From Planctomycetota bacterium (lineage in GTDB: Bacteria > Planctomycetota > PUPC01 > DSUN01), in the NCBI GenBank assembly GCA_035527715.1, contig DATKZY010000187.1, positions 49,388 through 113,387 on the forward strand: 64,000 nt of DNA, written 5' to 3'. How positions within the stretch are numbered: position 1 is the first letter of the stretch; the number at the start of each line of letters is the position of its first letter. The notes under the pieces are model-generated. The model worked only from the letters and a program-made list of their open reading frames with translations, searched no databases and had not been told where the DNA came from. The position numbers and the translations under genes are program-made. Below, in pieces: positions 32,232 to 62,800 of the stretch.

Positions 32232-33173
32232 ATGGCCGAGCCGCAGATGCCCTTCGTTTCGGTCGTCGTCGCGGCCTACAACTCGCGCGACACGATGGCC
32301 CGCTGTATCGAGGCCCTCCAGGGGCTCGACTACCCGAGCTTCGAGATCATCGTGGTGGACAACGCTTCGACCGACGGTACGCGGGACATTGCGGCGCGCT
32401 ATCCGGTCACGGTGCTCGACGAGTCGCGCCGCGGCTGGCCCGCCGCCCGCAACCGCGCCTGGCACTGGTCGAAGGCGCCCTTCGTGGCGAACATTGACGC
32501 CGATTGCTTCGCCGAGCCGTCGTGGCTGCGCGAGCTGGTCGCCGCCCTCCTGGCCGACCCTGGGGCCGGCTGCGCCGTCGGCCGCACGAAGGTCGAGCCG
32601 GGGAAGACCCTCGCCGAGCAGCACTATGCGGCGTGCGACCCGTTCAACATCGAGAAGTACGTGCAAGGCACGGCGCGGGCCTTCGGGCGGGCCTGCCCCT
32701 GGGGCGGGGGGAACAACTGCTTTCGCCGCGAGGTGCTCGAGGCCGTGGGCGGCTACGACGCCGAAACCTACACCTCGGGCGCCGACCGCGAGTTCCACCG
32801 CCGCTTCGAGGAGGCCACGGGCCTCCGCACCGTCTACGCCCCCAAGGCCGTCATCTGGCACGCCGCGCGCGGCTCCGTGCGCGAGCTGTTCCGCAACGCC
32901 GCGAAGTACGCCTCCGACGCCGTCCTCCACGCCCGGTTCGACCCCGGCGTGCGCGACCACCTGCGCGGCTTCGTCCGCCGCAACCTTGGCTTCATCGCCC
33001 GCAACGCCGCGGGCCTCGTGTGGCGGGCCGCGAAGTTCCTGATCGGGCGCGAGACGCGGCTGGGCGTATCACGCCCCTTCTTCTATAGCGTGCAGGAGTC
33101 GGGCTCGATCTGGGGCTATCTCAAGGGCCGGCGCCGCGTCAGGAGGATGCAGAGGAACCTCCCGCAGGTTTGA
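32232..33173 (+). CDS. GT2-family glycosyltransferase
   Basis: VSVVVAAYNS...IIVVDNASTDGT...DADCF. The stop codon TGA forms the loop of a perfect 13-bp hairpin. Confidence 0.8.
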   Translation: MAEPQMPFVSVVVAAYNSRDTMARCIEALQGLDYPSFEIIVVDNASTDGTRDIAARYPVTVLDESRRGWPAARNRAWHWSKAPFVANIDADCFAEPSWLRELVAALLADPGAGCAVGRTKVEPGKTLAEQHYAACDPFNIEKYVQGTARAFGRACPWGGGNNCFRREVLEAVGGYDAETYTSGADREFHRRFEEATGLRTVYAPKAVIWHAARGSVRELFRNAAKYASDAVLHARFDPGVRDHLRGFVRRNLGFIARNAAGLVWRAAKFLIGRETRLGVSRPFFYSVQESGSIWGYLKGRRRVRRMQRNLPQV

Positions 33174-33186
33174 AACCTGCGGGAGG
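33158..33186. repeat. Palindromic element family B: 29-nt perfect hairpin CCTCCCGCAGGTT-tga-AACCTGCGGGAGG whose loop is the stop codon of the GT2 gene
   Basis: A 13-bp perfect stem. A second copy at 61262..61290 has a compensatory base-pair change. There is no U-tract, so it is not a classical intrinsic terminator. Confidence 0.75.
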
Positions 33187-33208
33187 CTGAGACAAGGGGT
33201 GAGCCAAC

Positions 33209-34420
33209 ATGCCGGACGCGCCCGCAGTCGTCCTGTATATGAGCTATCTCGGCCTCGGGCTCGTGCGGGCCTTGGGGCGCGAGGGCGTGCGCGTCTTCGC
33301 CCTCGACCCGCACCCCGACGCCTTGGGCATGAACTCCCGCTACTGCCAGCCCGTCGTCACCCCCGACATCAAGCAGGACGAGGCGCGCTACCTGGAGTTC
33401 CTGCTGGACTTCGGCCGCCGCCTGCCCGCGAAGGCCGTGCTCTATCCCACCGGCGATCCGACGGTGGTGCTCCTGTCGCGCGAGCGTGAGGTCCTGTCGC
33501 AGTACTACCATTTCGTCATGCCGGACCACGCGACCGTGCTGAAGCTGCTGACGAAGGACGGGCTGGACGCCGTGGCCCGCGAGCACGGCATCCCGGCCCC
33601 CCGCACGGCCATCCCCGCCGACCGCGCGGCGGTGGAGGCCGCGGCGCGCGACCTCCAGTTCCCCGTCCTTCTCAAGCCCGCGGAGAGCCACGCCTGGAAG
33701 GCGAAGGCCATCGTGGACCTCATTGGCGTCGGCACCAAGGTCATCCCGTGCTCCAGTCCAGAGGAGTTGCTCGTCCAGTACGACCGCATCGCCGCCCACA
33801 ACCCCAACGTGATTGTCCAGGAACTCGTCCCCGGCGAGGACGAGCGGCTGGTGTACTTCTGCTTCTACGTCGGGCGGGACGGCGAGCCACTGGGCGTCTT
33901 CGCGGGGCGGAAGCGCCGCGTGCTGCCGCCCGGCCTCGGCTCGGCCAGCTTCGCCGAGACCATGGCCGACCCCGCGCTCACCGACGTGGCGCTGCGGCTC
34001 CTCCGCGCCGTGGACTATCGCGGACTCGGCGGCGTCGAGTTCAAGCTCGACCCGCGCGACAATACGTACAAGCTCATCGAGTTCAACGTGCGGTTCGGCC
34101 TCTGGGACGCGTTGGGCGCCCGCTGCGGGGTGAACCTGGCGCACCTCGCCTGGCGCGATGCGCTCGGGCTGCCCGTCGAGCCGCAGGTCCGCTGCCGCAC
34201 GGGCGTCAAGTGGGTCTCGATGCAGCGCGACCTGTCGGCATTCCGGCTCTACCGTCGCCAGGGCAAGCTGACCACGTGGCGCTGGCTCCGCTCGCTCGCC
34301 GGCGAGAAGATGTGGGCCGTCCTGGCGTGGGACGACCTGGCCCCGTTCTTGTCGAGCGCCCCAGGCTACGTGTGGGGACTCCTCGCGCCGCGGCTGGGAA
34401 TCGGGCGGGGCAGGGTGTAG
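33209..34420 (+). CDS. ATP-grasp domain protein (carbamoyl-phosphate-synthase/D-Ala-D-Ala-ligase-like fold)
   Basis: 403 aa. The patterns VLLKPAESHAWKAK...VIVQELVPGED...GVEFKLDPRDNTYKLIEFNVRFG resemble the ATP-grasp B and C subdomains. Confidence 0.7.
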   Translation: MPDAPAVVLYMSYLGLGLVRALGREGVRVFALDPHPDALGMNSRYCQPVVTPDIKQDEARYLEFLLDFGRRLPAKAVLYPTGDPTVVLLSREREVLSQYYHFVMPDHATVLKLLTKDGLDAVAREHGIPAPRTAIPADRAAVEAAARDLQFPVLLKPAESHAWKAKAIVDLIGVGTKVIPCSSPEELLVQYDRIAAHNPNVIVQELVPGEDERLVYFCFYVGRDGEPLGVFAGRKRRVLPPGLGSASFAETMADPALTDVALRLLRAVDYRGLGGVEFKLDPRDNTYKLIEFNVRFGLWDALGARCGVNLAHLAWRDALGLPVEPQVRCRTGVKWVSMQRDLSAFRLYRRQGKLTTWRWLRSLAGEKMWAVLAWDDLAPFLSSAPGYVWGLLAPRLGIGRGRV

Positions 34421-34434
34421 AATGGGAGAAGGCA

Positions 34435-34560
34435 GTGCGAAATGTAAAATGCAAAAGGCAAAGTGCAAAATCCAGAACACACCTGGGGCTAGGGGAGTAA
34501 GCGACATCGGGGCTCACCATTTTGCCTTTTGCACTTTGCCTTCTGCATTTTGCATTGGGA
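34435..34560. promoter_or_regulatory. AT-rich long imperfect inverted repeat immediately upstream of the B12-radical-SAM gene. It could be an operator/promoter or an RNA hairpin.
   Basis: The arms are gtgcgaaatgtaaaatgcaaaaggcaaagtgcaaaatcc and cattttgccttttgcactttgccttctgcattttgcattggga, separated by about 45 nt. It is the only strongly AT-rich patch in a 70% GC locus. Confidence 0.4.
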
Positions 34561-34570
34561 TTTCTCCGCG

Positions 34571-35953
34571 ATGAAGGTTGCGCTGATCCAGCCGCCAATG
34601 GATTCGGACTACCCGCCGCTGAGCCTCGGCTCGCTGGCGGCGTATCTGGCGTCGAAGGGGCACACGCCGCGCGTCTTCGACCTCCAGGTGCCGGCGCAGC
34701 GGGCCGAATGGCCGCGGGCGTTGGCGGAGTTCGCGCCCCAGCTCGTCGGCGTCACGGCGATGACCCCCACCATCGCCGCCGCGGCCGAGGTCGGTCGCAC
34801 CTGCAAGCAGGCCCTCCCCGACGCCACACTCGTCCTCGGCGGCTATCACGTGAGCTTCCTGCCCGAGGAGACGATGCGGCGCTACCCTGCCTTCGACGTG
34901 GGGGTGATCGGCGAGGGCGAGGTGACGCTGCACGAGCTGGTCGAGGCACTGGACGCGGGCCGCGAGTTGGACCAGGTGAGCGGGCTGATCCTCCGCCGTG
35001 GCGACGGCCTGGTGACGACCCCGCCGCGCGCGCGCATCCAGGACCTGGACGCCCTGCCCTGGCCCCACGAGCACTACGACCTCGGCCACTACCTGTGGTA
35101 CGGCGGCTACACGGGGCGCTGGACGTTCAAGTGCGCGAGCGCCATCGTCTCGCGCGGCTGCCCGTTTCGCTGCCGCTTTTGCGCCTCGCAGCGCTTCTGG
35201 TCGAAGCGTTACCTCGTCGGCTCGCCCGAGCACGTGGTGGACGAGATGCGGTGGCTGGCCCGCCACGGCGCGCGGAGCGTGTACTTCCGCGACAGCACGT
35301 TCAACGTCAAGAGGAAATGGCTCCGCGAGTTCTGCGCGGCGAAGCGGCGGGCGGGCCTCCGCATGCGCTGGCTGTGCAACAGCCGCGTGGACACGCTGGA
35401 CGAGGAGCAGCTCACGCTGATGGCCGAGGCGGGCCTCGAGGCCCTCTACTTCGGCGTCGAGAGCGGCAGCCAGCGCATCCTCGATTACTACAACAAAGGC
35501 GTCACCGTCGAGCAGACCCGCGAGGCATTCCGCCTCTGCCACAAGTACCGCGTCGCCACGGCGGCCTACTTCATGATCGGCGCGCCCATCGAGACGCGGG
35601 CCGACATCGAGGAGAGCCGCAAGCTCGCCCGCGAGCTGCGGGCGAAGTACACCTACTGGTTCATCTACACGCCGCTGCCGGGCGCCCCGCTTTACGACGA
35701 CTTCGTCGAGCGGGGCTACAAGCCCGACTTCGAGCACTTCGTCTTCAGCCGTGCGACGATTCCCGTGGGCGACCTGGCCCCCGAGGAGCTGGAGGCCCTC
35801 CACCACCAGCTCGTCGCCGAGTTCCGCCGCAAGACCACGCGGGGCGATGTCTGGCGGCGACGCTGGGAGATTCTCCGGTCCGTCCGCTCCTGGCGCGACG
35901 TGCGCCACCTGGGCCGCAAGCTCGCGCGGCGAATGGGGCTAGGTGGCCAGTAG
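34571..35953 (+). CDS. B12-binding domain radical SAM protein (class B radical SAM)
   Basis: The N-terminal B12-binding-like region is MKVALIQPP...VGVTAMT. SRGCPFRCRFC is the CxxxCxxC motif. The track ORF start at 34529 lies inside the AT-rich repeat, so the ATG at 34571 is preferred. Confidence 0.85.
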   Translation: MKVALIQPPMDSDYPPLSLGSLAAYLASKGHTPRVFDLQVPAQRAEWPRALAEFAPQLVGVTAMTPTIAAAAEVGRTCKQALPDATLVLGGYHVSFLPEETMRRYPAFDVGVIGEGEVTLHELVEALDAGRELDQVSGLILRRGDGLVTTPPRARIQDLDALPWPHEHYDLGHYLWYGGYTGRWTFKCASAIVSRGCPFRCRFCASQRFWSKRYLVGSPEHVVDEMRWLARHGARSVYFRDSTFNVKRKWLREFCAAKRRAGLRMRWLCNSRVDTLDEEQLTLMAEAGLEALYFGVESGSQRILDYYNKGVTVEQTREAFRLCHKYRVATAAYFMIGAPIETRADIEESRKLARELRAKYTYWFIYTPLPGAPLYDDFVERGYKPDFEHFVFSRATIPVGDLAPEELEALHHQLVAEFRRKTTRGDVWRRRWEILRSVRSWRDVRHLGRKLARRMGLGGQ

Positions 35954-36166
35954 TGGGCAAGTCAAGATGCTCACCCCCTCCCGTCCGGAGTGGTCTGAGC
36001 GCCTTGACTCAGCTCCACAACGAGGGTTCAGGAGAGCCACATGTCATTGCTGTGTATATGGTTGTGGCTCCGTCCGCGGCGCCGGTCGTCGGCCCGCCAA
36101 GATGTTCACCCCCTATTGCGCGCGCGTGAGCATCTTGAACACCTTGAGTTCGAGGTCTGACCCCGA

Positions 36167-37525
36167 ATGCGCGTGACGCTGGTGCAACCCGACACGGGCG
36201 GGAGCTATCCGCCGCTGAGCCTGGGCTACCTGGCGGCCTATGCCGCCGCGCGGGGCCACGAGGCGCGGATTCTCGACCTCCAGGTGCCCGCGCAGCGCGA
36301 GCGCTGGGAAGAGCTTCTCGTCGAGGCTCGGCCCGACCTCGTCGGCTTCACGGCCCTCACGCCGAGCATTCGCCAGGCGGGTGAGCTGGCCGCCCGCGCC
36401 CGCGAGCTTCTCCCCAGCGCGAAGCTCATCGTCGGCGGATTTCACGCCTCGATGGAGCCTGAACAGACGCTTCGCGACTATCCCGCCTTCGACTACCTGT
36501 GCATTGGCGAAGGCGAGGAAACGCTGGCCGAGCTGTGCGGGCGGCTCCAGGACGGCCAGTCGCCGGAAGGCATCGCGGGCCTCGCGTGGCGGAAGGGCGA
36601 GGCCGTCGAGCTCGGGCCGCCGCGGGGCCGGATCGCCGACCTCGATCTTCTGCCGAGCCCCCATGGCTTCTACGGCCTCGAGCACTACCTCGAATCGGGC
36701 AGTTTCACCTACCAGTATGGCTATCGCTGCGCGTCGGTCATCGCGTCGCGGGGTTGCCCGTTTCGCTGCCGGTTCTGCTCGATTCCGGGCAAGTACGTTC
36801 ATCAGTCGGTCGAGCGCCTGGCCGACGAGATTGCGGAGCTGCTTCGGCGGGGGGCCGACGGCGTGTTCTTCCGCGACAGCACGTTCACGATCCGGCGCGA
36901 CTGGGTGCTGGCCTTCTGCGAGGCCGTGCGCCAGCGGCGGATGCGGTTCCACTGGATCGCGAACGCGCGGCCGGACCTCGTGGACGACGAGCTGCTGGCG
37001 GCGATGAAGCGCGCGGGCTGCTTCGCCCTCTGCTACGGCGTCGAGAGCGGCCGCGACAGCGTGCTCGACTACTATGGCAAGGACCACACGGTCGAGGACA
37101 CCCGCCGCGCCGTGGCCGCGACGAAGCGCGCGGGCATTCGTGTCATCGCCTACTTCATGCTCGGCGCGCCCATCGAGACGCGGGCCGACATCGAGGCGAG
37201 CCACCAGTTCGCCCGCGAGCTGGGCGCCGAGCGCACGATCTGGAAGATCTTCGCCCCGCTCCCCGGCTGCGAGATCTACAACGAGCTGAAGGCCAAAGGC
37301 GTGAAGCTGGACTTCGATGCGATTCGCACCGACCGGGCCTCGTATCCGCTGGCAGACATGACCGAGGCGGAGATCGAGCAGCGGTTCCGCGAGCTACAGG
37401 CAGAGTTCGCCTACACCCGCGGCAGCCGCCTCCGCGTCTTCTGGCGTCAGCTTCGCCGCGTCCGCTCGCCCCGCGACGCCTGGCGCCTCGCCCGCCGGGT
37501 GGCAGCCAGGCTGCTTCGTGGGTAG
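36167..37525 (+). CDS. B12-binding domain radical SAM protein, tandem paralog of the 34571..35953 gene
   Basis: MRVTLVQPD...SRGCPFRCRFCSIPGKY. The domain order matches the upstream paralog and the two are about 50% identical by eye. Confidence 0.85.
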   Translation: MRVTLVQPDTGGSYPPLSLGYLAAYAAARGHEARILDLQVPAQRERWEELLVEARPDLVGFTALTPSIRQAGELAARARELLPSAKLIVGGFHASMEPEQTLRDYPAFDYLCIGEGEETLAELCGRLQDGQSPEGIAGLAWRKGEAVELGPPRGRIADLDLLPSPHGFYGLEHYLESGSFTYQYGYRCASVIASRGCPFRCRFCSIPGKYVHQSVERLADEIAELLRRGADGVFFRDSTFTIRRDWVLAFCEAVRQRRMRFHWIANARPDLVDDELLAAMKRAGCFALCYGVESGRDSVLDYYGKDHTVEDTRRAVAATKRAGIRVIAYFMLGAPIETRADIEASHQFARELGAERTIWKIFAPLPGCEIYNELKAKGVKLDFDAIRTDRASYPLADMTEAEIEQRFRELQAEFAYTRGSRLRVFWRQLRRVRSPRDAWRLARRVAARLLRG

Positions 37526-37630
37526 GATGGTTGGATGAATGGATGACTGGATGATTGTCAGAGGAGCCTTGCCGCCTTCCCATTCATCCATCCATCCACC
37601 CATCCATTCATCCTCCTCCAGGAGGCGCAT

Positions 37631-38647
37631 GTGAGCCGCTGGGCCAGGCAACTCGTCGTCACCGTGTCCGTCGAGCCCGACGATCCGTCGGTCGTGGGCC
37701 GGTCGGGAGCGTATCGCTCACTCGACGGGCTTGAGCGGTTCCACGAGCTGTGCCGACGCTACGGCGTGCGGCCGACGTATCTCGCCACGTACTCGGCGGC
37801 GGGGGAGACCCGGTGCGTGGACCTCTTCCGCTCCTGCGGCGACGAGGCCGAGGTCGGGGCGCACCTGCACCCCGAGGAGGTGCCGCCCATCGCCGAGGGC
37901 GAGCGTGGCAACCACACGCTGCGCCCGAGCGCGGTCGAGCCCGGCCGCCTGCGGGAAAAGCTGGCCAACCTCGTCGAGCGCGTGGCGGAGGCGGCGGGGC
38001 GGCGGCCCACCGCGTATCGCGCCGGCTTCTTCGACCTCACGCCCAGCCAGGTCGTCGCGCTTGTTGGGCTGGGGATCGAAGCCGACTCCAGCCTTGGCCC
38101 CCTGGAAAAGGTCGGCGGCAAGTACCCGTTTCTTCGCGTTCCCTTTGAGCCATACGTCGCTGACCCCGCGAACCCGTGCACAGAGGCTCACGCGTCACGC
38201 GTCACGCGTCACGCATCACTCGTCGAGGTTCCCCTCACCAGCGTCTTCCGCCGTCCTTTTCCCAGGCGGCTTTTTGGTGTATACTTCGGGATGCCGGGTG
38301 TCGTGCGAGGGGCGCTGCGCGCGCTCGGCGCCGCCGAGGTGCTGCGGTTCCGCCCGGCAGTGGCCTCCGCCGACGACTTGCTGGCCGTGTGCCGGCGCAC
38401 GGAGCGGCTGGGCGTGCCCGCGGTCATGACCATTCACTCGAACGAGTTGTGGCCGGGCACGAGCGCGGGGTCACATCTTCATTTGGCACCTGGCGGCGAA
38501 GTGCGAAATGAAGATGTGACCCCCGAGGCGGCCTGTGCCGCCTACTTCGAGCGCCTCGAGCGGGTGTTCGCGCATTGCCAGGCGGACGGCTGGGCGAGCC
38601 GCACGCTCACGGAGATCGCCCGCGCAACCCGGGGGAATGCGGGATGA
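37631..38647 (+). CDS. Polysaccharide deacetylase-like protein (LTVDTE-type paralog of 26115..27221). It carries palindromic element A4 and an in-frame GTCACGC heptamer array.
   Basis: VVTVSVEPDD...HLHPEE. Element A4 encodes GSHLHLAPGGEVRNEDVTPE. The array at 38187..38214 encodes AHASRVTRHAS. Confidence 0.65.
   Translation: MSRWARQLVVTVSVEPDDPSVVGRSGAYRSLDGLERFHELCRRYGVRPTYLATYSAAGETRCVDLFRSCGDEAEVGAHLHPEEVPPIAEGERGNHTLRPSAVEPGRLREKLANLVERVAEAAGRRPTAYRAGFFDLTPSQVVALVGLGIEADSSLGPLEKVGGKYPFLRVPFEPYVADPANPCTEAHASRVTRHASLVEVPLTSVFRRPFPRRLFGVYFGMPGVVRGALRALGAAEVLRFRPAVASADDLLAVCRRTERLGVPAVMTIHSNELWPGTSAGSHLHLAPGGEVRNEDVTPEAACAAYFERLERVFAHCQADGWASRTLTEIARATRGNAG
38187..38214. repeat. Heptanucleotide array CTCACGC GTCACGC GTCACGC ATCACTC, in-frame in a CDS
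   Basis: The same GTCACGC array recurs at 63815..63842 inside the last gene. Confidence 0.8.
38467..38523. mobile_element. Palindromic element family A, copy A4
   Basis: GGGGTCACATCTTCATTTGGCAC-11 nt-GTGCGAAATGAAGATGTGACCCC. It is nearly identical to A1. Confidence 0.8.
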
Positions 38648-39051
38648 TGGGGCCGGCGACCCACTTCTTGTTCGGCATGCTGTGCGGAGCGGCGATCGGG
38701 GGGGTGGCCGTGGCCCTGCGCCGCAGGTGGCTGGCGTGGCTGCCGGCTTTCATCCTGGCCTGCGGCTTCTGGGCCGAGATGCCCTGCCTCGTCGGCGTGC
38801 GCGACGTCGCCCACCCGCTGGCCAATGTGTTCTTCGGCTACGCCTGGCTGCATCCGTGGCTCGAGGCCGACGAGCTGACGGGCTTCTCCTTCGTCCTCGG
38901 GCTGGCGAACCTGATGATGCTGGCCTGCGTGGTCTTCCTGTACCGGTTCTTCGCCGCGGTGGACTTGGTGCGGTGGGAACGCGAGGAGCCTCCGCGCGAG
39001 CGGGAGCGCTCCCGGCCGCATCGCTCCCGCCGCCATCGCGCGAGGGAGTGA
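38644..39051 (+). CDS. Small membrane protein. It is a paralog of the N-terminal domain of the downstream giant protein.
   Basis: 135 aa. It shares the conserved blocks RRRWL.WLP, ACG and ANVFF...WL with residues 1-110 of the 39059 gene. ATGATG overlaps the previous stop. Confidence 0.5.
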   Translation: MMGPATHFLFGMLCGAAIGGVAVALRRRWLAWLPAFILACGFWAEMPCLVGVRDVAHPLANVFFGYAWLHPWLEADELTGFSFVLGLANLMMLACVVFLYRFFAAVDLVRWEREEPPRERERSRPHRSRRHRARE

Positions 39052-39058
39052 CGCCGCC

Positions 39059-42000
39059 ATGCCGATGCCCCAGGTGCACTTCGCGGTCGGCATGGGAGCG
39101 GCCTCGCTGCTGGGCGTGCCGCTGCTCGTGCTGCGCCGGCGCTGGCTCCTGTGGCTGCCGCTCGTCATGACCGCGTGCGGCGCGCTGGCGCTGGTGCCCG
39201 ACGTGGTAGCGCGGGGCAGGGACTTCCTGCCCGGGCCCGCGGCCGAGCGGGGGCGCACGCACACCCCCGCGGCCAACGTGTTCTTCCTGCACACGTGGCT
39301 CGACCGGCAGCCGGCCCTCTACGCGCCGGCCGTGGCCGACCTGGCGTTCCAGGCCGTGGCGCTGATGTACCTGGCCTCCGCCATCGGCTATGCGGCCTTC
39401 CTCCGCTGGGGGCTCCCTCGGATGGCCGAAGCGGGGGAGGCGTTAGCGCGGCTGCGGCGCGAGACGGCGAGCTATCGCCCCGTGGCCGCCCTGCTCGGCC
39501 TGCTGCCGCTCGTGGTGGCCGGCGCGGCGGCGGTGTGGACGCTGTGGCCCAAACGCCCCGCGGGCGCGCCCGCCCAGGGGCAGGAGGCGCTCGACCCCGC
39601 GCAGTGGGCGCAACTTGTCTCGCGGCGCCTCGGCGTCGCGGTCGGCCAGCGCCTCGGCGTCGTCCATTCGACATGGGACAGCCATGGGGCCTGGCTGTGC
39701 GGCGACCTGGGGGCGAGGGTGTCGCCCGACGCGCCGGGCGCCGCCGAGCTCGTCGAGCGCGCGAAGGCCAATGGCTGCGATTTCGTGGCGTTGCTGGACG
39801 GCGCGAGCCCTGACGACCTTGCCGCGGCGCGACAGAAGCACCCCGACATGGCCCTCCTGGCGGGCCTGGTGTGGGACGCGCCGACGAGGCGGGGGGCCGA
39901 GCGAGCCATCGTGCTGGTGCCGCCGCAAGCGCGCGAGGCCGCGGTGCTGGCCGACTTCCGCCGGCAGTTCGCCGGCCCGGGCGGATCGGCAGAGGATGCC
40001 CTGCGATGGCTCGACGCCCACGGCGCCTCGCCCAAGGCACAGCCCGTGGTCCTGGCGGCACAGGCTTCCAGCCTGTGGGCCACAGGCAAGATGCCTGTGC
40101 CACCGGGCAGCGGGGAGGGCTGGCCGGATCTCTTCTCGTGGCGGCGGACGAATGGGCTGTTCATCGGCTTCCTCGGCCTTCCGGGCGCCGAACGCCTGTC
40201 CGCCCGCGAGGCCCGCAGCCAGTGGGACCCCCGCGTGGCCGCCGTGGGGGGCATGTGGGACAGGTTCCTGGACGGGGGCTTCCGGCTCTGGGGCGCGGCC
40301 GCGGCATCCGGCTTCCAGGACCCTGCCCGGCAGTTCTGGCCGGGCGAGTTCGCCCGCACCCACGTGTGGTGCCGCGGGCGCGCCGCGGAGGACGTGTTGG
40401 GCGGCCTCCGGGACGGGTGCTTCTGGGCCGTCGAGGGCGCGGTCGTGCGCGCGCTGGACTTCGGGGTCAACGCCCCGACGCTCGAGCGGCCCGCGCGGAT
40501 GGGCGAGGTGGCCCGCGTGGCGCCGGGCGACGAGGTGACCGTGGAGCTGGCCCTGGACGTGCCGCCCACCGACTTCGCCGGGCGCCCGAGCCAGCTCGAC
40601 GAGGTGGAGCTGGTCTCGAACTTCGGCGGCGAGGCCGAGGTCGTCGCGCGGTTCCGCAACGTGCACGACGTGCGCCGCCTCGAGCACCGCCTGCCGCCGG
40701 CCCAGGACGCCAACGGCGGCCTCGGCTTCTACGTGCGCGCCCGAGGCTCCCGCCGCGTGGATGCGGGAGCGCGGCTGTTCTTCTACACGAACCCCATCCG
40801 CGTCCTCGTGCGGCCGGGGCTGGCGCCGCCGGCGCCGCCGGGCGCGGCCCCCGTCCGCGTGGCCTCGGCGCACCGCCCCGTCGAGCCCGCGCCGCCGAAG
40901 CCCAAGACGGCGACGCCCGTAGCGCCGCCGCCCGAGGACGACGTGCGGGCGCGGCTCGCCGCCGTCGGCCTGCCGGCCGGCGTGAGCCCCGTGTGCGTCG
41001 AAACGTTTCAGAAGCCGCCCGGGCGCCAGTGGCTTGGCGCCCACGTGAGCATCATCGGCGACCGCGGCCCGGCCCTGGGCGACGAGGAGCTGCGCGTCGA
41101 GCTCCTCCAGCGCATCCCCCTTGGCGAGGCCACCCGACTGTTCTTCCGGTGCTACGCCTTGGACTGTGCCCGGCTGACGCTTGTCGCGCGCCCCGGCGGC
41201 GGAGCGGCCGCCTGCCAGGCCGTCCGCGAGCTCCCCGAGCGTCAGTGGGTCGAGTTCGACCTCTCGCTCGGCGACGACTTCCTGCCCCTGCGCGGGACCT
41301 CGGGCCGCCTGGGGCCGCCGGGCGAGGTCCAGGCCCTCGAGTGGGCTGGCGCCCGCCTCGGGCCGCTCTCGCGCTTCTACGTGACCGATGTCGTCGTCTA
41401 CGAGCCCACGCCTGCCAGCCGCCAGGGGCTGGCCCTGAAGCAAGCGGTGGACCTGGACGCGGCGCTGCGCGAGACGGCGGGCCGAGGGGCGACCGCAGCC
41501 ATGCAGCAACGGGCCCAGGCCGCCCTGGACCGCCTCGCCGCCTGGCGCGCGCGGCTCGACCCCAGACGAGGGCCACCGACGCCCGACGAACTGGCCGCCG
41601 TCCGCCGCGACCTGGCCGAGTTGGCCGCCGAGAGCCGTTGTCTTGGCTGGCAGGCCGCCATGACTCGCACCTTCCGCCTCGGCGACCCCAGGTTCGCCGT
41701 CACCCTCGCCGCCCCCGGCCAGCGCATCTCGGCGCGCAACCCCGCGCTCAACCCGTCGCCACAGATCGCCCGCTCGTGGGACCTGGCCGCCGCCGGCGCC
41801 GAGGCCGAGAGCGTCCAGATCGTCGTCATCGCCCTCTGGGACAGGCTCGAGGCCGTCGCCGTCGGCGTCTCGCCGTTCGTCCCTGTGGCTCGGGATGGGG
41901 CCGAGGGCCCGCCCGGCGGCGAGCGGGCCGCCACGCTGCCGACCTCGCTTGCCCTCGTGGGCGAGGCGATGGTGCGCCCAGGCCCCCTCCTCGCCCCCGA

Positions 42001-43882: not shown

Positions 43883-43955
43883 GGCCACGCCGCGCCCACC
43901 CGGCCGGGTTTCGTCGCCCCGCGCCGAAGCGCATTGTGTTCGAAGGAGTGACCCG

Positions 43956-45151: not shown

Positions 45152-45187
45152 CCTGTAGCGGGGCCGCCGGAACACTGCGACCAGAGC

Positions 45188-46574: not shown

Positions 46575-46622
46575 GCGGCCCCGCGCGGCCGCACGCCAGG
46601 CCCCCGGCGGGAGAATCTGCGA

Positions 46623-50897: not shown

Positions 50898-50935
50898 CGG
50901 GGAGGGGACTTCCTTGCGAGGAAAGTCCCTCCCCG
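50898..50935. terminator. Strong GC hairpin cGGGGAGGGGACTTCCT-tgcg-AGGAAAGTCCCTCCCCg between convergent genes. It is a putative bidirectional terminator.
   Basis: About 16 bp of stem. It lies 12 nt downstream of the minus-strand TIM-barrel gene stop and about 170 nt downstream of the plus-strand sugar transferase. There is no clear U-tract. Confidence 0.4.
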
Positions 50936-50946
50936 CTGCATTCGTG

Positions 50947-51744: not shown

Positions 51745-51783
51745 CGGCGAACTCCTAATCATGGCAAGACTCGATCAGCCGGC

Positions 51784-51817
51784 CGGGATTCCGCGTGCAA
51801 GTATGCACACGGAATTC
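51784..51817. promoter_or_regulatory. Imperfect palindrome GGGATTCCGCGTGCA-agta-TGCACACGGAATTCT in the 130-bp spacer between the TIR gene and the TIM-barrel gene
   Basis: Inverted repeat built from the GGATTCC/CGGAAT heptamer motif. It is followed by ATCCGAAATCG. It is a candidate operator or attenuator. Confidence 0.3.
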
Positions 51818-51874
51818 TGGCACCATCCGAAATCGAGCCGGCGGGCTTGCTACACGAACTCCTGAAACAGGACC

Positions 51875-54736: not shown

Positions 54737-55099
54737 CGGCCACTCCCGCGGGGCCGCGCTCGTGCGCTTCCAGCACAGGCTCGCGACACAAGGGTAGCCT
54801 GAGACGCTGGCCGTGTCAAGTGAGTCCGATGCGGGGCAGGAGCGGGGAGAGCCAATCGAGCGATCTTACAGGGGCCTAGCTGCCCATGCGCACACACGAG
54901 ATCGCTGTTCCGCAGCGGCAGGGAGATTCTACCAAGCTTGCCGAAGGGAAAAGCTCGCTTGCTTTGCCCGCGCCAATCCGCTACCCTATGCACGCGGCTG
55001 GTGAGCACAGGAGCGACGCGTGGCAGCTTACCCCTGGTATCTCATCTCGGAACGAGTCCAGCGCCTCTACGGGAAAGCGGGGGGATAGGAGGGCCGCTC

Positions 55100-56965
55100 G
55101 TGTTCAGAAGGAAGCCCATCGTGCTCTGCTGCTGCTGCCTTCTGGGGAGAGCACTCGCCGGCGCGGGGGAGCCCGACGCGGCGGCCCCCGACACGGCCAT
55201 CCTCAAGACCCTTCGGCCGGGCCACCCGCGCCTGGTCGCGCTCGAGGCGGACCTCGCGCGGGTGCGGGAGATGATCGCGAAGGAGGCGCTGGCCAGGGAG
55301 TACCACGCCGCGCTGCGCGCGCAGGCCGAGCGCTACGTGAAGGAGCCGGTGCTGGAGTACAAGCTCGTCGGCCCGCGGCTCCTGCACGTGAGCCGCGCGG
55401 CGTGCGACCGCATCTACACCCTCGGCCTCCTGTTCCGCCTCGACGGCCACGCGGAGTTCGCCGACCGAGCCGTCCGCGAGCTCGTGAACGTGTGCGGGTT
55501 CAAGGACTGGCATCCCTCGCACTTCCTCGACACGGCCGAGATGACGCACGCGGCGGCGATCGGCTACGACTGGCTCCACGACAGGCTCACGGCCGAGCAG
55601 CGCCGCGCCGTGGTGGACGCCATCGTGGCGAAGGGGCTGCTGCCCGCGAAGAAGGTGTACGACGGCGGCGGCTGGTGGTCGCGCTCGACGCACAACTGGA
55701 ACCAGGTGTGCAACGGCGGCATCGCCATCGGCGCCCTGGCCGTGGCCGACGAGCGGCCCGAGCTGGCCGCCGAAATCCTCGCCGCCGCCCGCGCCTCCAT
55801 CGTGCGCGCCATGCGTAGCTACGAGCCCGAGGGCGGCTGGAACGAGGGCCCCGGCTACTGGCACTACGCCACCCGCTACAACGTCTACTACCTGGCCGCG
55901 CTCCAGACGGCGCTGGGCACGGACCTCGGCCTGATCCGCGAGATGCCCGGGTTCGCGAAGGCGGGCGACTTCCGCCTCTACTTCGCCGGGCCCGTGGGCC
56001 GCACGTTCAACTACGCCGACGCGGGCGACCGCACCGGTCGCGCCGCCGAGATGTTCTGGCTCGCCCGCACCCTCGACGCGCCGCGCTATGCGTGGCACGA
56101 GCGGTCCTGCGACGGACGCCCCGACGCCCTCGACCTCCTGTGGTTCGACCCGCGCGGCCAGGGGCCGAAGGCGGAGGTGTGGCCCCTCGACCGCTGGTTC
56201 CGCGGCGTCGAGGTCGCCTTCCTCCGCTCGGTCTGGGAGGACCGCGACGCCGTCTTCGTGGGTTTCAAGGGTGGCGACAACCGCGCCAACCACTCGCACC
56301 TCGACCTGGGGACCTTCGTGCTCGACGCCCTCGGCGTCCGCTGGGCGCTCGACCTCGGCGGCGACAACTACAACCTGCCCGCCTACTTCGGCGGCAAGCG
56401 CTGGACCTACTACCGCCTGCGCACCGAGGGCCATAACACCCTGACCCTCGGCGGCGAGAACCAGGACCCCGCCGCGAAGGCGCCCATCCTCGCCTTCGCC
56501 TCGTCGGAGGCTCGGGCATTCGCCGTCGCCGACCTCTCGCGCGCCAACAAGGGCGCCGCTCGCTGGTGGCGCGGCATCGCGCTCCTCGACCGCCGCGAGG
56601 TGCTCGTCCAGGACGAGGTCGAGTTGAAGGCACCATCGGATGTCGTGTGGGCGATGCACACCCCGGCGGTCGTGCAGGTCGCCGGCGCGACGGCCACGCT
56701 CAAGGTGGGGGAGGCCTGTCTGCGAGCATGGGTTCTGGAGCCGGCGGGGGCGAGGTTCGAAACCGCCTCGGCCACGCCGCCGAAGCCTCAGGCCCAGAAC
56801 GAGGGCGTGAGCCGCCTGTTCATCCGGTTGGCGGGGGCCAAGGAGGCGCGGGTCGCCGTGCTCCTCACGCCCTATCGCGGACCCGCGCCGCCGCCGACGG
56901 GCCGAGACGTCGTGCCGTTGAAGCAGTGGATCGCGGAGACGCCGGGCTCCGCCACCAGGCCGTGA
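55100..56965 (+). CDS. Secreted heparinase II/III-like family protein (polysaccharide lyase-like; DUF4962 + Hepar_II_III)
   Basis: The signal peptide is MFRRKPIVLCCCCLLGRALA. GGWNEGPGYWHYAT and ANHSHLDLGTFVLDALGVRWALDLG match the heparinase II/III C-terminal domain. It starts at GTG 55100 after GGAGGG. Confidence 0.8.
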   Translation: MFRRKPIVLCCCCLLGRALAGAGEPDAAAPDTAILKTLRPGHPRLVALEADLARVREMIAKEALAREYHAALRAQAERYVKEPVLEYKLVGPRLLHVSRAACDRIYTLGLLFRLDGHAEFADRAVRELVNVCGFKDWHPSHFLDTAEMTHAAAIGYDWLHDRLTAEQRRAVVDAIVAKGLLPAKKVYDGGGWWSRSTHNWNQVCNGGIAIGALAVADERPELAAEILAAARASIVRAMRSYEPEGGWNEGPGYWHYATRYNVYYLAALQTALGTDLGLIREMPGFAKAGDFRLYFAGPVGRTFNYADAGDRTGRAAEMFWLARTLDAPRYAWHERSCDGRPDALDLLWFDPRGQGPKAEVWPLDRWFRGVEVAFLRSVWEDRDAVFVGFKGGDNRANHSHLDLGTFVLDALGVRWALDLGGDNYNLPAYFGGKRWTYYRLRTEGHNTLTLGGENQDPAAKAPILAFASSEARAFAVADLSRANKGAARWWRGIALLDRREVLVQDEVELKAPSDVVWAMHTPAVVQVAGATATLKVGEACLRAWVLEPAGARFETASATPPKPQAQNEGVSRLFIRLAGAKEARVAVLLTPYRGPAPPPTGRDVVPLKQWIAETPGSATRP

Positions 56966-56994
56966 GGGCGGCTGAGATAGCTTCCGCCGACCGG

Positions 56995-58347
56995 TTACTT
57001 CGTCGCGTTCACCGTCCCATCGCTGTTGCGGACAGGGAGCCAGACGCTGAGGCCCTCATCCGCAATCCGTGGGGACGGGGACTTGCCGGCGGGCCTGTTG
57101 TCGAACAGGCAACTGCGGTCGCCCCATTCGTAGCTCACGATGTCCATGATGTTGTGCGGCATCGCGCGGCCGTCGAAGTAGAGGCAGGCGGTGCGCTTGT
57201 TGTGGCGCGGCACAGGCCGCCACGCGTTATTGTAATCGGGCAGACCCATGCCGTCGGGCGACGGGGTGTAGCGGGAGTAGAATGCCTTGTAGTATCCGAT
57301 GCGCTTCTTCGACAGCCAGTACACGTCGCTCCAGGCCAGATCCACGCCGGTGTAGAGCGGCGAGAGCGGGTAGCGGGTGTAGCCCATCCAGCACTCGGCG
57401 GCGAAGCCGCTGGTGTGCTCGGCCCACTCCAGGGGCGGGTGCGTCTCTTCGGTTGGCAGCCACGCGTCGGGCAGGCCGGCCATGACCTGCTGGTAGCCCC
57501 ACACGGGGTCGTTCGTGACCAGCCCGGTGTCGCACACGGCGATCTGCTGGCTGGGGATGGTCAGGGTGCCGAAGTGGACGGATTGCCCGTACCAGAGGAT
57601 GGGCGCCGCCGCCGACTCGCCGAGCATGTAGCACGGATAGGGCCTGAAGCCCTTGGGCTCGGTCGTCTCGGCGCCAGTCGTGTAGGGCCAGCAGAACTGG
57701 TCCTGCGAGGTGTCCTTGAGCGCTTTGGTGCCCGCATTCGCGTCGCGGCAGGCCCAGGAGGGGTAAACGTCCGCGTACTTCACCTTGTCAAAGGGGTAGA
57801 TGATCGACTCCCCGAACGGTGCCGCGTAGTTGTAGCCGTAGCCGAGCACGGCCTGCTTCTTGGCCGGGCAGGAGTACATCATGCACAGCCGGGCGATTTC
57901 CATGTAGATATACGTGTCGTCCTTCACGTCCGAGGGCCTCTTGCCCGTGCGCGCGCAGTAGGCGGTCAACGCGTTCTTCCACGTGGCGCTGGGGTTGACG
58001 TAGGGCGCCAGGGCGACGTACCAGAAGGGGAACTTGCCGCCGGTGACGATTTTCGTGGCATCTATGAGGCTCATGGGGGGCTCGCGGAAGGGGCCGCTGG
58101 TCGCCGACAGCTTCGTCGGGGCCCCCGCGGACACCATCCAGGAGTCAAAGTCCTTGTTGTAGTTCGTGAATGCCTGGCCCATCTGGCGCATGTTGCTCAG
58201 GCAGTTCGTGAGATCGGCCGTGCCCAAGGCATAGATGATGGCCGGCAGCAGCAGGCCGGCAAGGATCGTGATGATGCCGATCACGACGAGGAGCTCGACC
58301 AGGGTGAACCCCTGCGACCGCGATCTCGTAAGTGCTGTGATACTCAT
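56995..58347 (-). CDS. DUF1559 family protein with an N-terminal prepilin-type cleavage/methylation motif
   Basis: The N-terminus MSITALTRSRSQGFTLVELLVVIGIITILAGLLLPA is a class III signal with a type IV pilin-like N-methylation site. The C-terminal LYFDGRAMPH resembles the HX9DG region. Confidence 0.85.
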   Translation of the reverse strand: MSITALTRSRSQGFTLVELLVVIGIITILAGLLLPAIIYALGTADLTNCLSNMRQMGQAFTNYNKDFDSWMVSAGAPTKLSATSGPFREPPMSLIDATKIVTGGKFPFWYVALAPYVNPSATWKNALTAYCARTGKRPSDVKDDTYIYMEIARLCMMYSCPAKKQAVLGYGYNYAAPFGESIIYPFDKVKYADVYPSWACRDANAGTKALKDTSQDQFCWPYTTGAETTEPKGFRPYPCYMLGESAAAPILWYGQSVHFGTLTIPSQQIAVCDTGLVTNDPVWGYQQVMAGLPDAWLPTEETHPPLEWAEHTSGFAAECWMGYTRYPLSPLYTGVDLAWSDVYWLSKKRIGYYKAFYSRYTPSPDGMGLPDYNNAWRPVPRHNKRTACLYFDGRAMPHNIMDIVSYEWGDRSCLFDNRPAGKSPSPRIADEGLSVWLPVRNSDGTVNATK

Positions 58348-59636
58348 AGCTTAGGACCCCTGTGTTGCAGTCTCACCCCTACCTCGCTTCGCGCACTCCT
58401 CCCCGCCCTCATTATATCCCCGTGGCTCTTGCCTTGTCAAGCAATTCGCGCCGCTTTCCGGGGATTTGCGCTTTCGCCCTCGCCCGGTATAATCGCGCCC
58501 TCGTGTCCCGCAGTTCGGGCTTGCGGGAGAGCCCACGACAGGGGTTGGCAGGATGTGGCGAGCGTTTGCTCTGGCACTCGTTGTGCGGGCAGCAGGGGCG
58601 TGCGCGCCGAGGCATGCACGGCCCAAGGCCATGCCCAGTCCCGTGCCGCCCGCGCGAGCGGCGCCCGAGAGCAGGGGAGGGGAGGCCCCGCCGCTCTCCG
58701 CCTCCGCCGCGAGCCGTGACCCTCCTCGACTCGCCGTTTGGCGATTCTCGCCCTTCTGGCCAAGCGTTTCCCAAGCTCCCCGGCCTCGCGACTCGAGAAT
58801 CGGCGATCCTCGGCCTTCCGGCTCAAGGTCCCCCAAGCTCCCCATACTCCCCACTTCTGCGCCCCCTGGGGTCAGGCCGCAACTTACAACTTAACTGCCG
58901 TGGCACCCAACATGTTGTGGTGGCCTCCTAGCTGACCACAATATAGCCTAACTCGCCTGAGTCGCCTGACTCGCCGGTTCATGGGGGAGGTCCCGCCCGC
59001 CGCCGCGGAGCCGAGCCGGCAGTGGCAGAGAGCCGTCCACAGATTTCGCCGATGGACACAGATGAAAGTCGACGGTTGTCCAGTGTCCACCGGCCACTGC
59101 ATAGCGCGTCTAACTGGTCTTCTACAGTTGCTTTCCCTATCTATCCGCTTGGCAAGGGGTTAGGGAAATGCGAAATGGTGTTGGCACTACAGGAGCCTGA
59201 TCCAGCGATGGGGCGGGCCGGTGGTTCACCGACGAGTTCGGGGGACGCCTTACTCGATTGCCGCGACAGAGAGAAGAAGTGGCAGGGGAATGGGGGCAGG
59301 GGAATGGGGGAGGGAAGACCGCCTGAAGGCGGGACTACGAACAGGCAGCGCGGCGAAGCGAATCATGACCAGTCGTGAGCGATGCGTGAGCCCTTGGAGT
59401 GCGGCGGCTTGACGCCGCTTTCCATGCCGTCGAGAGCGGGGCGCTGAGCCCAAGGTCTTTGGAACGCGGCATCGAGATGCCGCACTCCGAAAGGCTGCCG
59501 CACGGCACGCGCCGCCGCGGTTCTCCCTTTGGCTCCATTCCCTTGTCCCACATTCCCTTGTCGTTCCTCTTCCTGCGCCGAGAGGGGAGGGTCGGTGTCT
59601 CGGCAACACGCCCGCTGAAGAGGGGAGGCCACTGTT

Positions 59637-59657
59637 CTGAAATCGGCAATCGCAAAT
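59637..59657. repeat. Heptanucleotide array TCTGAAA TCGGCAA TCGCAAA, intergenic
   Basis: Same unit family as 26124 and 28251. It lies about 160 nt upstream of the 59816 gene. Confidence 0.7.
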
Positions 59658-59696
59658 TTTTCCAAGCCCCCCTCCCCCACTGCCCCCCGCCCCGCG

Positions 59697-59706
59697 CCCC
59701 CCCCCC
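59697..59706. repeat. Homopolymeric C10 tract within a C-rich stretch upstream of the giant secreted gene
   Basis: ccccctcccccactgccccccgccccgcgCCCCCCCCCCgtgggg, 110 nt upstream of ATG 59816 and about 85 nt upstream of TATATAT. Confidence 0.7.
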
Positions 59707-59791
59707 GTGGGGCCATTCTGAGCGAGGCGAGATGCTTCGCAGGGCCTCAGCATGACCGACTGATGTCGTGTTGCGCTCGGCGGGCAATCGC

Positions 59792-59798
59792 GCTATAT
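59792..59798 (+). promoter_or_regulatory. Putative -10 element TATATAT followed by AAGGAAG RBS and ATG 59816
   Basis: cgcTATATATtAAGGAAGacccccTATG. The AT-rich hexamer is unusual in this GC-rich DNA. Confidence 0.3.
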
Positions 59799-59815
59799 AT
59801 TAAGGAAGACCCCCT

Positions 59816-62800
59816 ATGTCCCCCACGGAGAAGCCGATGCTTCGTGCCTGTCTCGCCTGCGTGCTTGCGATGGCGGCGTTCGCCGCGGAGGCGGCCGCCC
59901 CTCGACGCGCTCGGGGCGCCGTGAGCCTGCCGAGCGCCGCCGACCCCGCGTACTACGTGAAGAAGGCCACGTGGCAGGAAACGATGCTGGCCTCGCGCGA
60001 GGCCCTGGCCACGGCCCAGGCCGAGGCGCCCAAGGAGTCGGCCTTCAAGCCCTATGTGACAGGCGTCATTCGCGGCGGCCAGCCCGCTCAGCAGATTTCC
60101 CTCGATGTGTCCACGCTCGACCAGCTCTGGCTCCTGGCCGACGTGGGCGACGACAACTACGATTCCGACCAGGCCATCTGGGGCGAGCCCACGCTCGTCG
60201 CCAGGGACGGCACCAGGGTGCCCCTCACCACGCTCAAGCCCGTCTCGGTCAAGGTCGGCTGGGGCAACCTGATCGTCAACAACAACCACACCAAGGCTGG
60301 CCTCCGCATCGCCAACAAGAAGTACGAGCATGGCTTCTGGGCCCACGCCCCGAGCGCCCTGTGCTTCGCTCTGGGCAAGAAATACGTGAGGTTCGAGGCC
60401 TGGGCCGGCATTGACGCGACGGCGACCTCGCACGGCTCGGTGAGGTTCCACGTGCTCGACAAGGCCGGCCGCACGAGCGACCTCGATGCCCTCTGGTCGC
60501 TCGTGGGCCGCGACTTTCCCAACGCCAGCCGCGAGATGCAGTGGGAGCGCCAGGACCGCATCTGGGACGACGATTGGCGGCCTGGCGACCTCGCCATGCT
60601 CGGCGCCCGCTACGCGAAGTGCGCGGCGACCCGAGCCAAATCCATGGCCGCCGAGGCCCAGAAGCTTGCGCCCGCTGTGGCCGATGCCGTGGCCCTTCAG
60701 AAGGTGCGCGAGCTGTACTACCGCGCGCACACCATCGAGGAGAACCTGGCGAAGCTGGGCGACCTGAAGTTCGAGCCCCTCCGCCTCGCCCTCGCCGACC
60801 TCATCGAGACCCACGGCGACACGTATCCCAAGGGCCGCGAGTTTCTCCAGCGCCTCGACGCACTCGAGAAGTCGGCCTCGGCCGACGACAAGGCGGCGGA
60901 CCCCGAGCGCAAGGCGAAACTCGTCGAAGAGTTCGAGTCACTCAAGCGCGAGGCGCTGCTCGCCAATCCGCTGCTCTCGTTCGACAAGCTGCTTGTCGTG
61001 CGCCGCAGCGCGCGCAACCTCGCCCTGCCCGCCAACTGGCAGGGCAACTCGTGCCTGCCCCGCAGCGGACTCGACAACGAGATCGCCATCCTCTCGCTCC
61101 GCGCTGTGGGCGGGGCGTCCCTGCCCCGCGTCCAGACCCTCTACAAGCCCGAGGGCGGCAGGTTCGTGGGCGATGTGGACCTGCATTTCGATGCCGACCG
61201 CCTGCTCTTCTCCTCGCTCGACGCGAAGAACAAATGGCAGGTCTTCGAGATGACGCTCAAACCTCCCGCGGGTTCGCAACCCGCGGGAGGTTATCCCATC
61301 CGCCAGCTCACCGGCGAGCAGCCCGACGTGGACAGCTACGACGCCTGCTACCTGCCCGACGGCCGCATCATGTTCTGCTCGACCGCGCCCTTCGTCGGCG
61401 TGCCCTGCGTCTTCGGCTCCTCGCACGTCGCCATGCTCTACCGCATGGACGCCGACGGCAAGAACATCCGCCAGCTCTGCTTCGAGCAGGACCACGACTG
61501 GTGCCCCGCCGTGCTCAATAACGGCCGCGTGCTCTACCTCCGCTGGGAGTACACCGACACGCCGCACTCGCAGACCCGCATCCTCTTCCACATGAACCCC
61601 GACGGCACCGAGCAGATGGAGTACTACGGCAGCAACTCGTACTGGCCGAACGGCGTCTTCTACGCCCGCCCGATCCCCAATCACCCGACAAAGGTCGCGG
61701 GCATCGTGACCGGCCACCACGGCGTGCGGCGGATGGGCGAGCTGGTGATCTTCGACCCCGGCAAGGGGCGCCACGAAGCATCGGGCGCCATCCAGCGCAT
61801 CCCCGAGCGCGGCAAGGAGGTCGAGCCAATCATCCGCGACGGCCTGGTCAACGCCTCCTGGCCGAAGTTCCTCCACCCCTATCCCCTCAGCGACAAGTAT
61901 TTCCTCGTCGCCTGCCAGCCCACGGCGAAGTCACTCTGGGGCCTCTACCTGGTGGACACGTTTGACAACATGCTCCTCCTGCACGAGGAGCCGGGCTACG
62001 CAATCCTCGAGCCCGTGCCGCTCCAGAAGACCCTCAAGCCGCCCGTCATCCCCGACAAGGCCGACCCGAAGCGCAAGGACGCCGTGGTGTACATGGTGGA
62101 CGTCTACCAGGGCGACGGCCTGAAGGGCGTGCCGCGCGGCACGGTGAAGAAGCTGCGCATCTTCTCCTACCATTTCGCCTACCACGGCATGGGCGGCCTG
62201 CTCGGCGTGGTGGGCATGGACGGCCCGTGGGACCCGAAGCGGATCGTGGGCACGGTGCCCGTCGAGAGCGACGGGTCGGCGCTCTTCCGCGTGCCGGCCA
62301 ACACGCCCATCTCCATTCAGCCGCTCGATGCCGAGGGCAAGGCGCTTCAGCTCATGCGAAGCTGGATGACCGCCATGCCCGGCGAGGTGCTCTCGTGCGT
62401 CGGCTGCCACGAGCGGCAGAACAGCTCGCCGCCCGCGAGGCAAACGCTCGCCCAGGCCAGGCCGCCCGCCGAGATCGAGCCCTGGCGCGGCCCCGCACGC
62501 GCCTTCAGCTATCCCCGCGAGGTCCAGCCGGTCATTGACAAGTATTGCATTGGCTGCCACAACGGTGAGAAGCGGCCCGATGGCAAGGTGGCCGCCGACC
62601 TCCGCGGCGACAAGCGCCTCGCCGACTTCAGGCTCGTCACGCCCGGCAACGGCGGCGGCAACGCAGGCCGCTTCTCCGTCGGATACGGCGAGCTCCACCG
62701 CTACGTCCGCCGCAACGGCATCGAGGGCGACTACCACCTGCTCACGCCCCTGGAGTTCCACGCCGACACCACGGAGCTCGTCCAGCTCCTCCAGAAGGGC

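Follow-up and report, generated by a model that had tools for sequence, protein, structure and literature searches.

The 64,000-nt stretch of DNA analysed here (the window; Planctomycetota bacterium, assembly GCA_035527715.1, contig DATKZY010000187.1, positions 49,388 to 113,387) carries two closely similar hairpins, one forming the 3' end of a glycosyltransferase family 2 (GT2) gene and the other lying in frame within the gene for a large secreted-type protein. Both are most likely (probability roughly 0.8) copies of one family of repetitive extragenic palindromic (REP) elements, a repeat that flanks genes for Y1/HUH transposases of the REP-associated tyrosine transposase (RAYT) type in related loci. 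The flanking of a Y1/HUH transposase gene by the repeat is the arrangement known as a REPtron, and it is on this ground that the repeat is assigned to the REPs.

Two hairpins in the window

33156..33188, unstranded: putative REP copy 1, 33-nt unit AA-CCTCCCGCAGGTT-TGA-AACCTGCGGGAGG-CT
33158-33170 / 33174-33186: 13-bp perfect stem of copy 1, with the loop TGA at 33171-33173
61260..61292, unstranded: putative REP copy 2, AA-CCTCCCGCGGGTT-CGC-AACCCGCGGGAGG-TT, 15-bp perfect stem

The hairpins were first noticed in a reading of the sequence without database searches (the original prediction), whose coordinates and sequences for both are correct, as is its description of copy 1 as a 13-bp perfect stem with the GT2 stop codon TGA as its loop. 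A codon begins at the first base of the 29-nt core of copy 2 (61262-61290), placing this hairpin in frame as had been claimed, and its perfect stem extends beyond the pairing originally described, to 15 bp (61260-61292). The two copies differ at stem position 9, where A-T in copy 1 is replaced by G-C in copy 2 through changes on both arms, in their loops (TGA and CGC) and at the outermost -1/+1 pair, which is an A/C mismatch in copy 1 and A-T in copy 2.

Within the window the 29-mer pattern, with up to three mismatches allowed, matched these two sites only, against 0.00 matches expected from window shuffles. For perfect hairpins of at least 13 bp, Markov simulations gave an expectation of about 0.07 per window; the window itself shows six loop registers, which correspond to three hairpins. 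The predicted RNA folding energies of the window hairpins ranged from -26 to -35 kcal/mol (z -4.8 to -6.3), and a covariance model of the repeat family, built from 51 copies, scored copy 1 at 54.6-54.8 bits (E ~7e-14) and copy 2 at 55.8 bits (E 3e-14). At 29-33 bp and with perfect stems of 13-15 bp, both have the size and shape of REPs, which are GC-rich, hairpin-forming palindromes of about 20-40 bp.

A dispersed family of perfect palindromes

Contigs of one genome per species were scanned with the pattern CCTCCCGCNGGT N3-9 ACCNGCGGGAGG, and the genome and metagenome loci bearing the repeat are referred to by L-numbers. At least 116 loci with the core were recovered from these species representatives. 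The record labels among the matches listed were mostly Anaerolineae or other Chloroflexota, together with several independent metagenome-assembled genomes (MAGs) labelled Latescibacterota or Planctomycetota and single records with other phylum labels. One 5.97-Mb Planctomycetota scaffold, JBGLNR010000001.1, held at least five copies. The repeat was absent from 2.9 million viral contigs, so there is no sign of carriage by phages.

The unit reads A-N-CCTCCCGC[A/G]GGTT, a 3-nt loop and AACC[T/C]GCGGGAGG-N'-T. The conservation of ends, pairs and loop was examined in 96 canonical copies among the matches listed, and it defines the unit as a 33-bp palindrome with the consensus A-N-CCTCCCGCRGGTT-NNN-AACCYGCGGGAGG-N'-T. 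The ends are sharp, with A at position -2 in 177 of 190 arms and conservation at background from position -3; Watson-Crick pairing holds at -1/+1 in 83 of the 96 copies (A-T 52, C-G 17, T-A 9, G-C 5) and at -3/+3 in 24 of 96, the latter being the chance level. The loop is 3 nt long in 67 of the 96 copies and free in sequence.

Twelve of the 15 stem pairs were fixed by the search pattern, which left position 9 and the loop free, and the evidence for covariation therefore comes from free positions and from copies found with the covariance model. The position-9 pair, at which the two window copies differ, is A-T in 70 copies, G-C in 20 and C-G in one, and the counts from the model alignment are similar. 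Copies found with the model carry compensatory variants at five further stem positions (L100, L023, L041, L095 and L119), among them the following double substitutions that preserve pairing, and the stem is symmetrically shortened in L101 and L107.

L100: C-G to T-A
L041: C-G to G-C
L095: C-G to A-T and T-A to C-G
L023: G-C to A-T

The double change between the window copies had been judged to lie beyond chance, and it indeed belongs to a pairing-preserving variation that runs through a large family. The original prediction was to be abandoned if only two copies and a single covarying pair existed; hundreds of copies were found elsewhere, with compensation at more than one stem position. The double change itself may reflect selection on the structure or templated correction of one arm by the other, which are inseparable from sequence alone.

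Several matches stand apart from this family. Six in Lentzea, one in Georgenia and one in Segeticoccus were set aside; they have the form GGTC..GACC, those in Lentzea lie in orthologous coding sequence, and all probably form a separate chance class. A search for half-sites with two mismatches was too noisy to interpret in GC-rich DNA.

Two groups of loci show the repeat in unusual settings. At 4100-4530 of L029 there are two arrays, each of five to six degenerate direct copies of the left arm only with a period of about 19 nt, each closing with one perfect hairpin that is followed by a tandem repeat resembling GTTAAAGAGA; slippage around the hairpin may have produced them. In loci of two Planctomycetota MAGs, L032 (reverse complement) and L110, the G-C variant lies directly between the stop codons of convergent genes, in what looks like the same site with loops differing by one base, and some copies are therefore stably inherited.

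Association with RAYT genes in related loci

Clustering of open reading frames (ORFs) from hairpin-bearing metagenome loci revealed a protein of about 192 aa encoded in L164, L172 and L231 with the repeat on both sides of its gene. The link to a RAYT thus came from metagenome loci only and not from the short-form genome loci, around which ORF clustering found no recurrent neighbour gene and inspection by eye found generic families (ABC ATPase, PBP, glycosyltransferases) and no transposase. The protein matched the Pfam family Y1_Tnp (IS200-like transposase) at 36.9 and 41.3 bits, above the cut-off of 23, and the NCBIfam model 'REP-associated tyrosine transposase' with E 4.5e-19, and the best solved relative of its family profile was E. 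coli TnpA-REP (4ER8; E 2e-4). The HUH (NHYH) and tyrosine (RYIHLNP) motifs were invariant or nearly so in an alignment of 20 sequences. There were 2150 homologues at E<=1e-15, the top 120 being 65-93% identical, and the Joint Genome Institute (JGI) name for the homologues is 'REP element-mobilizing transposase RayT'.

Another six loci were retrieved with the protein as the only criterion (L243, L244, L248, L249, L251 and L252), and in all six the gene has the repeat on either side, no more than about 250 nt away and in most cases within 100 nt. The REPtron arrangement, which has been described for REP/RAYT systems (PMC6006769), is thereby present in nine distinct related loci. Among the readings offered by the original prediction, that of a REP-like element was the correct one, given this flanking of RAYT genes in related loci. 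The homologue in L252 (1501-2157; 218 aa, 71% identical) has the repeat about 230-240 nt away on each side in the form of the compensatory variant CCTCCCGAAGG..CCTTCGGGAGG, which is also the variant of L095, and this hints at co-variation of enzyme and repeat. In L231 a REP copy at 5202-5232 interrupts the N-terminal part of its own RAYT gene (4829-5437).

Copy 1 replaced the end of the GT2 gene

32232..33173, + strand: GT2 glycosyltransferase gene (called, with its Pfam families, on L001, a near-identical metagenome contig)
33200..33202, + strand: relic of the ancestral GT2 stop TGA (alignment with L121 and L122: ...CAAGGGG-TGA-6 nt-start)
33209..34420, + strand: ATP-grasp-like gene, downstream in the same operon

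The final codons of the GT2 gene, N-L-P-Q-V-stop, come from copy 1. The orthologues in L121 (84% identity) and L122 (80%) end in ...AAG-RGG-stop and are followed 6 nt later by the next gene, and when the window is aligned to these two loci the hairpin falls within a gap of about 35 nt. Downstream of copy 1 the window retains the old stop (33200-33202) and the spacer of 6 nt, and the distance from the GT2 stop to the next start is 35 nt as against 6 nt in the uninserted orthologues. The uninserted state of L121 and L122 and the retained old stop together establish that copy 1 replaced the last GT2 residues and widened the gap. The element landed about 12 nt before the original stop, and the gene now takes its last five codons and its stop from it. 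A decayed copy with one compensatory T-A to C-G change occupies the same place in the 88% identical orthologue L119, and the insertion therefore predates the split from L119.

These results do not support the suggestion that copy 1 lies where an intrinsic terminator would be expected, as it is an insertion that orthologues lack, inside an operon and 22 nt before the next ATG. The lack of a U-tract at copy 1, which had been noted from the outset, was borne out: an intrinsic terminator is a GC-rich stem-loop directly followed by a T/U tract, and a terminator scan of 32800-33600 did not call the hairpin because no T-tract follows it. Downstream of family copies in general there were on average 2.9 T per 8 nt and no T-tract.

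Copy 2 added a segment to a large secreted-type protein

59804..64000, + strand: open frame of the large protein carrying copy 2 (translation), running off the window end

This protein contains TolB-like propeller, CxxCH and FGE-sulfatase-like regions, as judged from homologues and source names. Copy 2 is translated in frame as K-PPAGSQPAGG, followed by YP. All 31 aligned homologues (53-74% identity) instead have a short D-G-x-G turn before a conserved (L/I)RQ(V/L)T and are about 10 residues shorter at this place, and the approximately 10 extra residues of the window protein are exactly the translation of the hairpin. An exact flank-to-flank search found no empty-site allele of copy 2 in metagenomes, so its presence and absence are read from diverged orthologues. 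The element would have landed in a surface turn of the propeller-containing protein, and we propose that it survives there because the reading frame was kept.

Genomic context, insertion mode and long form

Copies of the family are strongly biased towards extragenic positions: 30 of 96 (31%) lie within an open frame of at least 450 nt in any of the six frames, compared with 83% of random positions in the same loci, and many are found 0-50 nt from stop codons, often between convergent genes. No target-site duplication was found, direct repeats of 3 nt or more at offsets 0-3 being no more frequent than chance; a weak excess of 2-nt direct repeats at offset 2 (15 observed against 5.8 expected) concerns just 16% of copies. 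Rfam 15 gave no match in the window at gathering thresholds, and the sole match among six related loci searched against Rfam at E<=1 was a chance-level miRNA model elsewhere in L034.

A scan of metagenomes for the same arms around 45-75 nt recovered at least 120 further loci (L123-L242), which define a discrete long form of 91-93 nt (e.g. L126 12150-12241). Over all loci the arm-to-arm spacing is bimodal, at 7 or 69-71 nt. The core of the long form is fixed in length (65 +/- 1 nt) and free in sequence, 118 unique cores falling into 59 clusters, and it does not continue the hairpin, the element being one stem that closes a non-palindromic core. In some of the long forms the 3' side carries GTAGGC or GTGAGC.

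Other palindromes in the window

Two weak covariance-model matches (E ~1) lie at 40747-40769 (CTCCCGC-N9-GCGGGAG) and 58506-58528 (TCCCGCAG-TTCGGGCT-TGCGGGAG), which could be decayed relics of the element or chance matches. Another palindromic repeat of the window, unrelated to the first, is a near-perfect palindrome of 57 nt, GGGGTCACATCTTCATTTGGCAC...GTGCGAAATGAAGATGTGACCCC, in four copies, presumably the 'family A' of the original prediction:

21784-21840: 57-nt palindrome, copy
22772-22825: 57-nt palindrome, copy
26222-26278: 57-nt palindrome, copy
38467-38523: 57-nt palindrome, copy

An AT-rich perfect palindrome with a 14-bp stem, AGAATTGCATACTT-GTTC-AAGTATGCAATTCT, is located at 8122-8153 amid the 70% GC of the window. 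It lies about 36 nt within the mechanically called ORF 8086..10434, and could be an operator or a sign that the ORF start is misplaced.

Weighing the explanations

Several observations weigh against assigning the window hairpins to a RAYT-linked REP family. Only two copies are visible in the 64-kb window, too few to establish a high copy number for the organism itself. No RAYT gene was found in the window by tblastn, and the RAYT-flanked examples with a taxon name belong to Anaerolineae / Anaerolineales and not to Planctomycetota. The NCBIfam RAYT score of 68.8 is below the curated cut-off of 80, and a single-sequence Protein Data Bank search with the RAYT did not reach 4ER8, its sole result being a spurious match to a designed repeat protein. 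No GT[AG]G / CGTC guide is present at the hairpin's foot, as GTAG, CGTC and their complements occur in the flanking 10 nt of only 1-3 of 190 arms. The transposase motifs NH[YF]H and Y[IV]HLNP, judged by motif only, resemble a Y1 subclass reported as not associated with REPs (Quentin et al. 2018).

The strongest competitor, itself unlikely, is that the hairpins are cis-acting RNA structures (a terminator, a 3'-end stabiliser or an RNase processing site) that arose or are maintained for such a role and resemble each other through a shared RNA-binding partner. This would agree with the very stable predicted hairpins, with the retention of pairing through sequence change, with the enrichment of copies between convergent genes and immediately downstream of stop codons, with the L032/L110 copy at apparently the same site between convergent stops, and with the roles of this kind that the literature gives to REPs (PMC6006769, PMC3733652). 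It is difficult to reconcile with the origin of both window copies as insertions absent from orthologues, one in coding sequence and the other in an operon 22 nt before a start, with the missing U-tract, the terminator scan that passed over copy 1 and the absence of an Rfam match, or with sharp ends and the flanking of transposase genes. A secondary effect on RNA after insertion is possible.

Two DNA-level alternatives are improbable. The two discrete size classes with the same arms, the sharp ends and the homologous cores within one genome (L034) could suggest a miniature transposable element with inverted repeats (MITE), belonging to a cut-and-paste DDE transposon, with the 15-bp arms as terminal inverted repeats and the 33-bp form as an extreme internal deletion of the ~92-nt form; however, target-site duplications were absent at all the offsets and lengths tested, the sole recurrent neighbour is the Y1/HUH enzyme and not a DDE transposase, and the bases at -1/+1 differ between copies while remaining complementary to each other, unlike independent terminal repeats. 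Slightly less probable still is a double-stranded binding site for a dimeric protein (an operator, a parS-like site or a recombinase core) shared across phyla, to which the conserved half-site, the direct half-site arrays of L029 and the lox-sized 13-3-13 layout would be suited. The spacing between arms, which ranges over 2 to 7 nt and can reach about 65 nt, misfits a fixed dimer footprint or recombinase overlap region, and the copies lie in unrelated loci without a common neighbour gene and arose by insertion. Chance similarity or an assembly or sequencing artefact is very improbable: nearly all canonical matches do come from MAGs, but none would be expected in window shuffles (0.00), the assemblies carry k141, NODE and contig_ names that indicate different assemblers, copy 2 is in frame, the decayed copy of L119 lies at the orthologous place and the linkage to the transposase is consistent.

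Four narrower candidates were rejected. An integron attC site does not agree with a perfect stem free of bulges or with dispersed copies lacking a common neighbour gene, and a lox-like or Xer-like recombinase core or an operator was discarded because the spacing varies. A mimic of the tRNA T-arm or minihelix, raised by the presence of GGTTCGAAACC in some copies, was dismissed because the three central loop bases are free, and a transposon excision footprint or insertion sequence circle junction because the bases at -1/+1 covary within a copy and conservation ends with the unit.

Under the favoured explanation, membership of a REP family, a RAYT-type enzyme would bind the hairpin once it has formed on DNA in single-stranded state, such as the lagging-strand template, and would then cleave it and join it to another site, leaving no target-site duplication. 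This mechanism is borrowed from IS200/IS605 and TnpA-REP enzymes, and by the same analogy a RAYT would have moved both copies in this genome. Perfect pairing may be kept by selection for recognition by the enzyme or by templated correction between arms. It is also plausible that the hairpins, once transcribed (-26 to -35 kcal/mol), influence the stability of the mRNA or the coupling of translation.

Comparison with known systems

The family resembles the REPs, bacterial interspersed mosaic elements (BIMEs) and REPINs of E. coli and Pseudomonas, with their RAYTs, in being a short palindrome, rich in GC and dispersed in numerous copies that are mainly extragenic and close to the 3' ends of genes, in the flanking of one Y1/HUH gene by the repeat and in insertion without target duplication. 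REPs in frame within genes and REPs that donate stop codons are already documented (PMC3733652). It differs in having no GT[AG]G or CGTC guide tetranucleotide, in a palindrome that is perfect and not bulged, in a long form that is a single stem around a ~65-nt non-palindromic core and not a REP doublet, and in a transposase only distantly related to E. coli TnpA-REP. Its 26-nt core is identical across genomes of several phylum labels, whereas REPs have been described as species-specific (PMC6006769).

Other systems share single features with it. Rickettsia palindromic elements (RPEs) are likewise palindromic repeats inserted in frame in protein-coding genes, adding a tolerated peptide segment (as cited in PMC3733652). 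Rho-independent terminators and 3' stabilisers are also stable GC-rich stem-loops found after stops in many copies, whereas here there is no U-tract, the sequence is conserved across genomes and copies lie in an operon and in coding sequence. RPEs measure about 100-150 bp, and they differ from the 33-bp unit found here in being restricted to Rickettsia, unrelated in sequence and without a linked RAYT. The GC-rich palindromic clusters of fungal and algal organelles are small GC-rich palindromes that spread through a genome, sometimes into genes; they are organellar and unrelated in sequence, and no dedicated enzyme is known for them. In IS200/IS605 elements a single-stranded hairpin is recognised by a Y1/HUH enzyme and no target duplication is made (PMC6006769), but those elements have asymmetric left and right ends, their own transposase and guide and cleavage tetranucleotides, while here one symmetric hairpin is the whole element. 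Searches of literature full text with the arm sequences returned unrelated primers only, and the literature on palindromic repeats in these phyla, within a limited searchable library, consisted of general REP papers, none with this sequence. The repeat is an atypical REP, which works like a REP and passes most tests of membership, and as an account of the two hairpins it holds little surprise.

Implications

Whether the system represents an undescribed kind of REP-RAYT is more doubtful, and we put this forward only tentatively. It is suggested by a 26-nt core that is invariant across genomes labelled Chloroflexota, Planctomycetota, Latescibacterota and others, by the lack of a guide, by a Y1 clade with motifs like those of enzymes reported as REP-free and by two discrete forms of 33 nt and ~92 nt. 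A guide tetranucleotide is thought necessary for RAYT cleavage, and such a system, if real, would imply a different mode of recognition and cleavage. It would also imply horizontal spread of REP-RAYT systems between phyla, contrary to the view of such pairs as vertically inherited and species-specific.

For the Planctomycetota bacterium itself, the hairpins of the window would be insertions of a selfish or domesticated palindromic repeat and not regulatory design. Their arrival changed the C-terminus of the GT2 glycosyltransferase, probably loosened translational coupling in the exopolysaccharide operon and added a loop to the secreted protein. Annotators of genomes from these phyla should be aware that peptide insertions of the 'PPAGSxPAGG' type and changed C-termini can stem from repeats. 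The family offers a clean test case for hairpin recognition by RAYTs, being a guide-less perfect palindrome that stays conserved while the enzymes diverge to 65% identity, with at least one enzyme lineage (L252) that has a compensatory variant of the repeat, and it bears on the movement of REP-RAYT systems between phyla.

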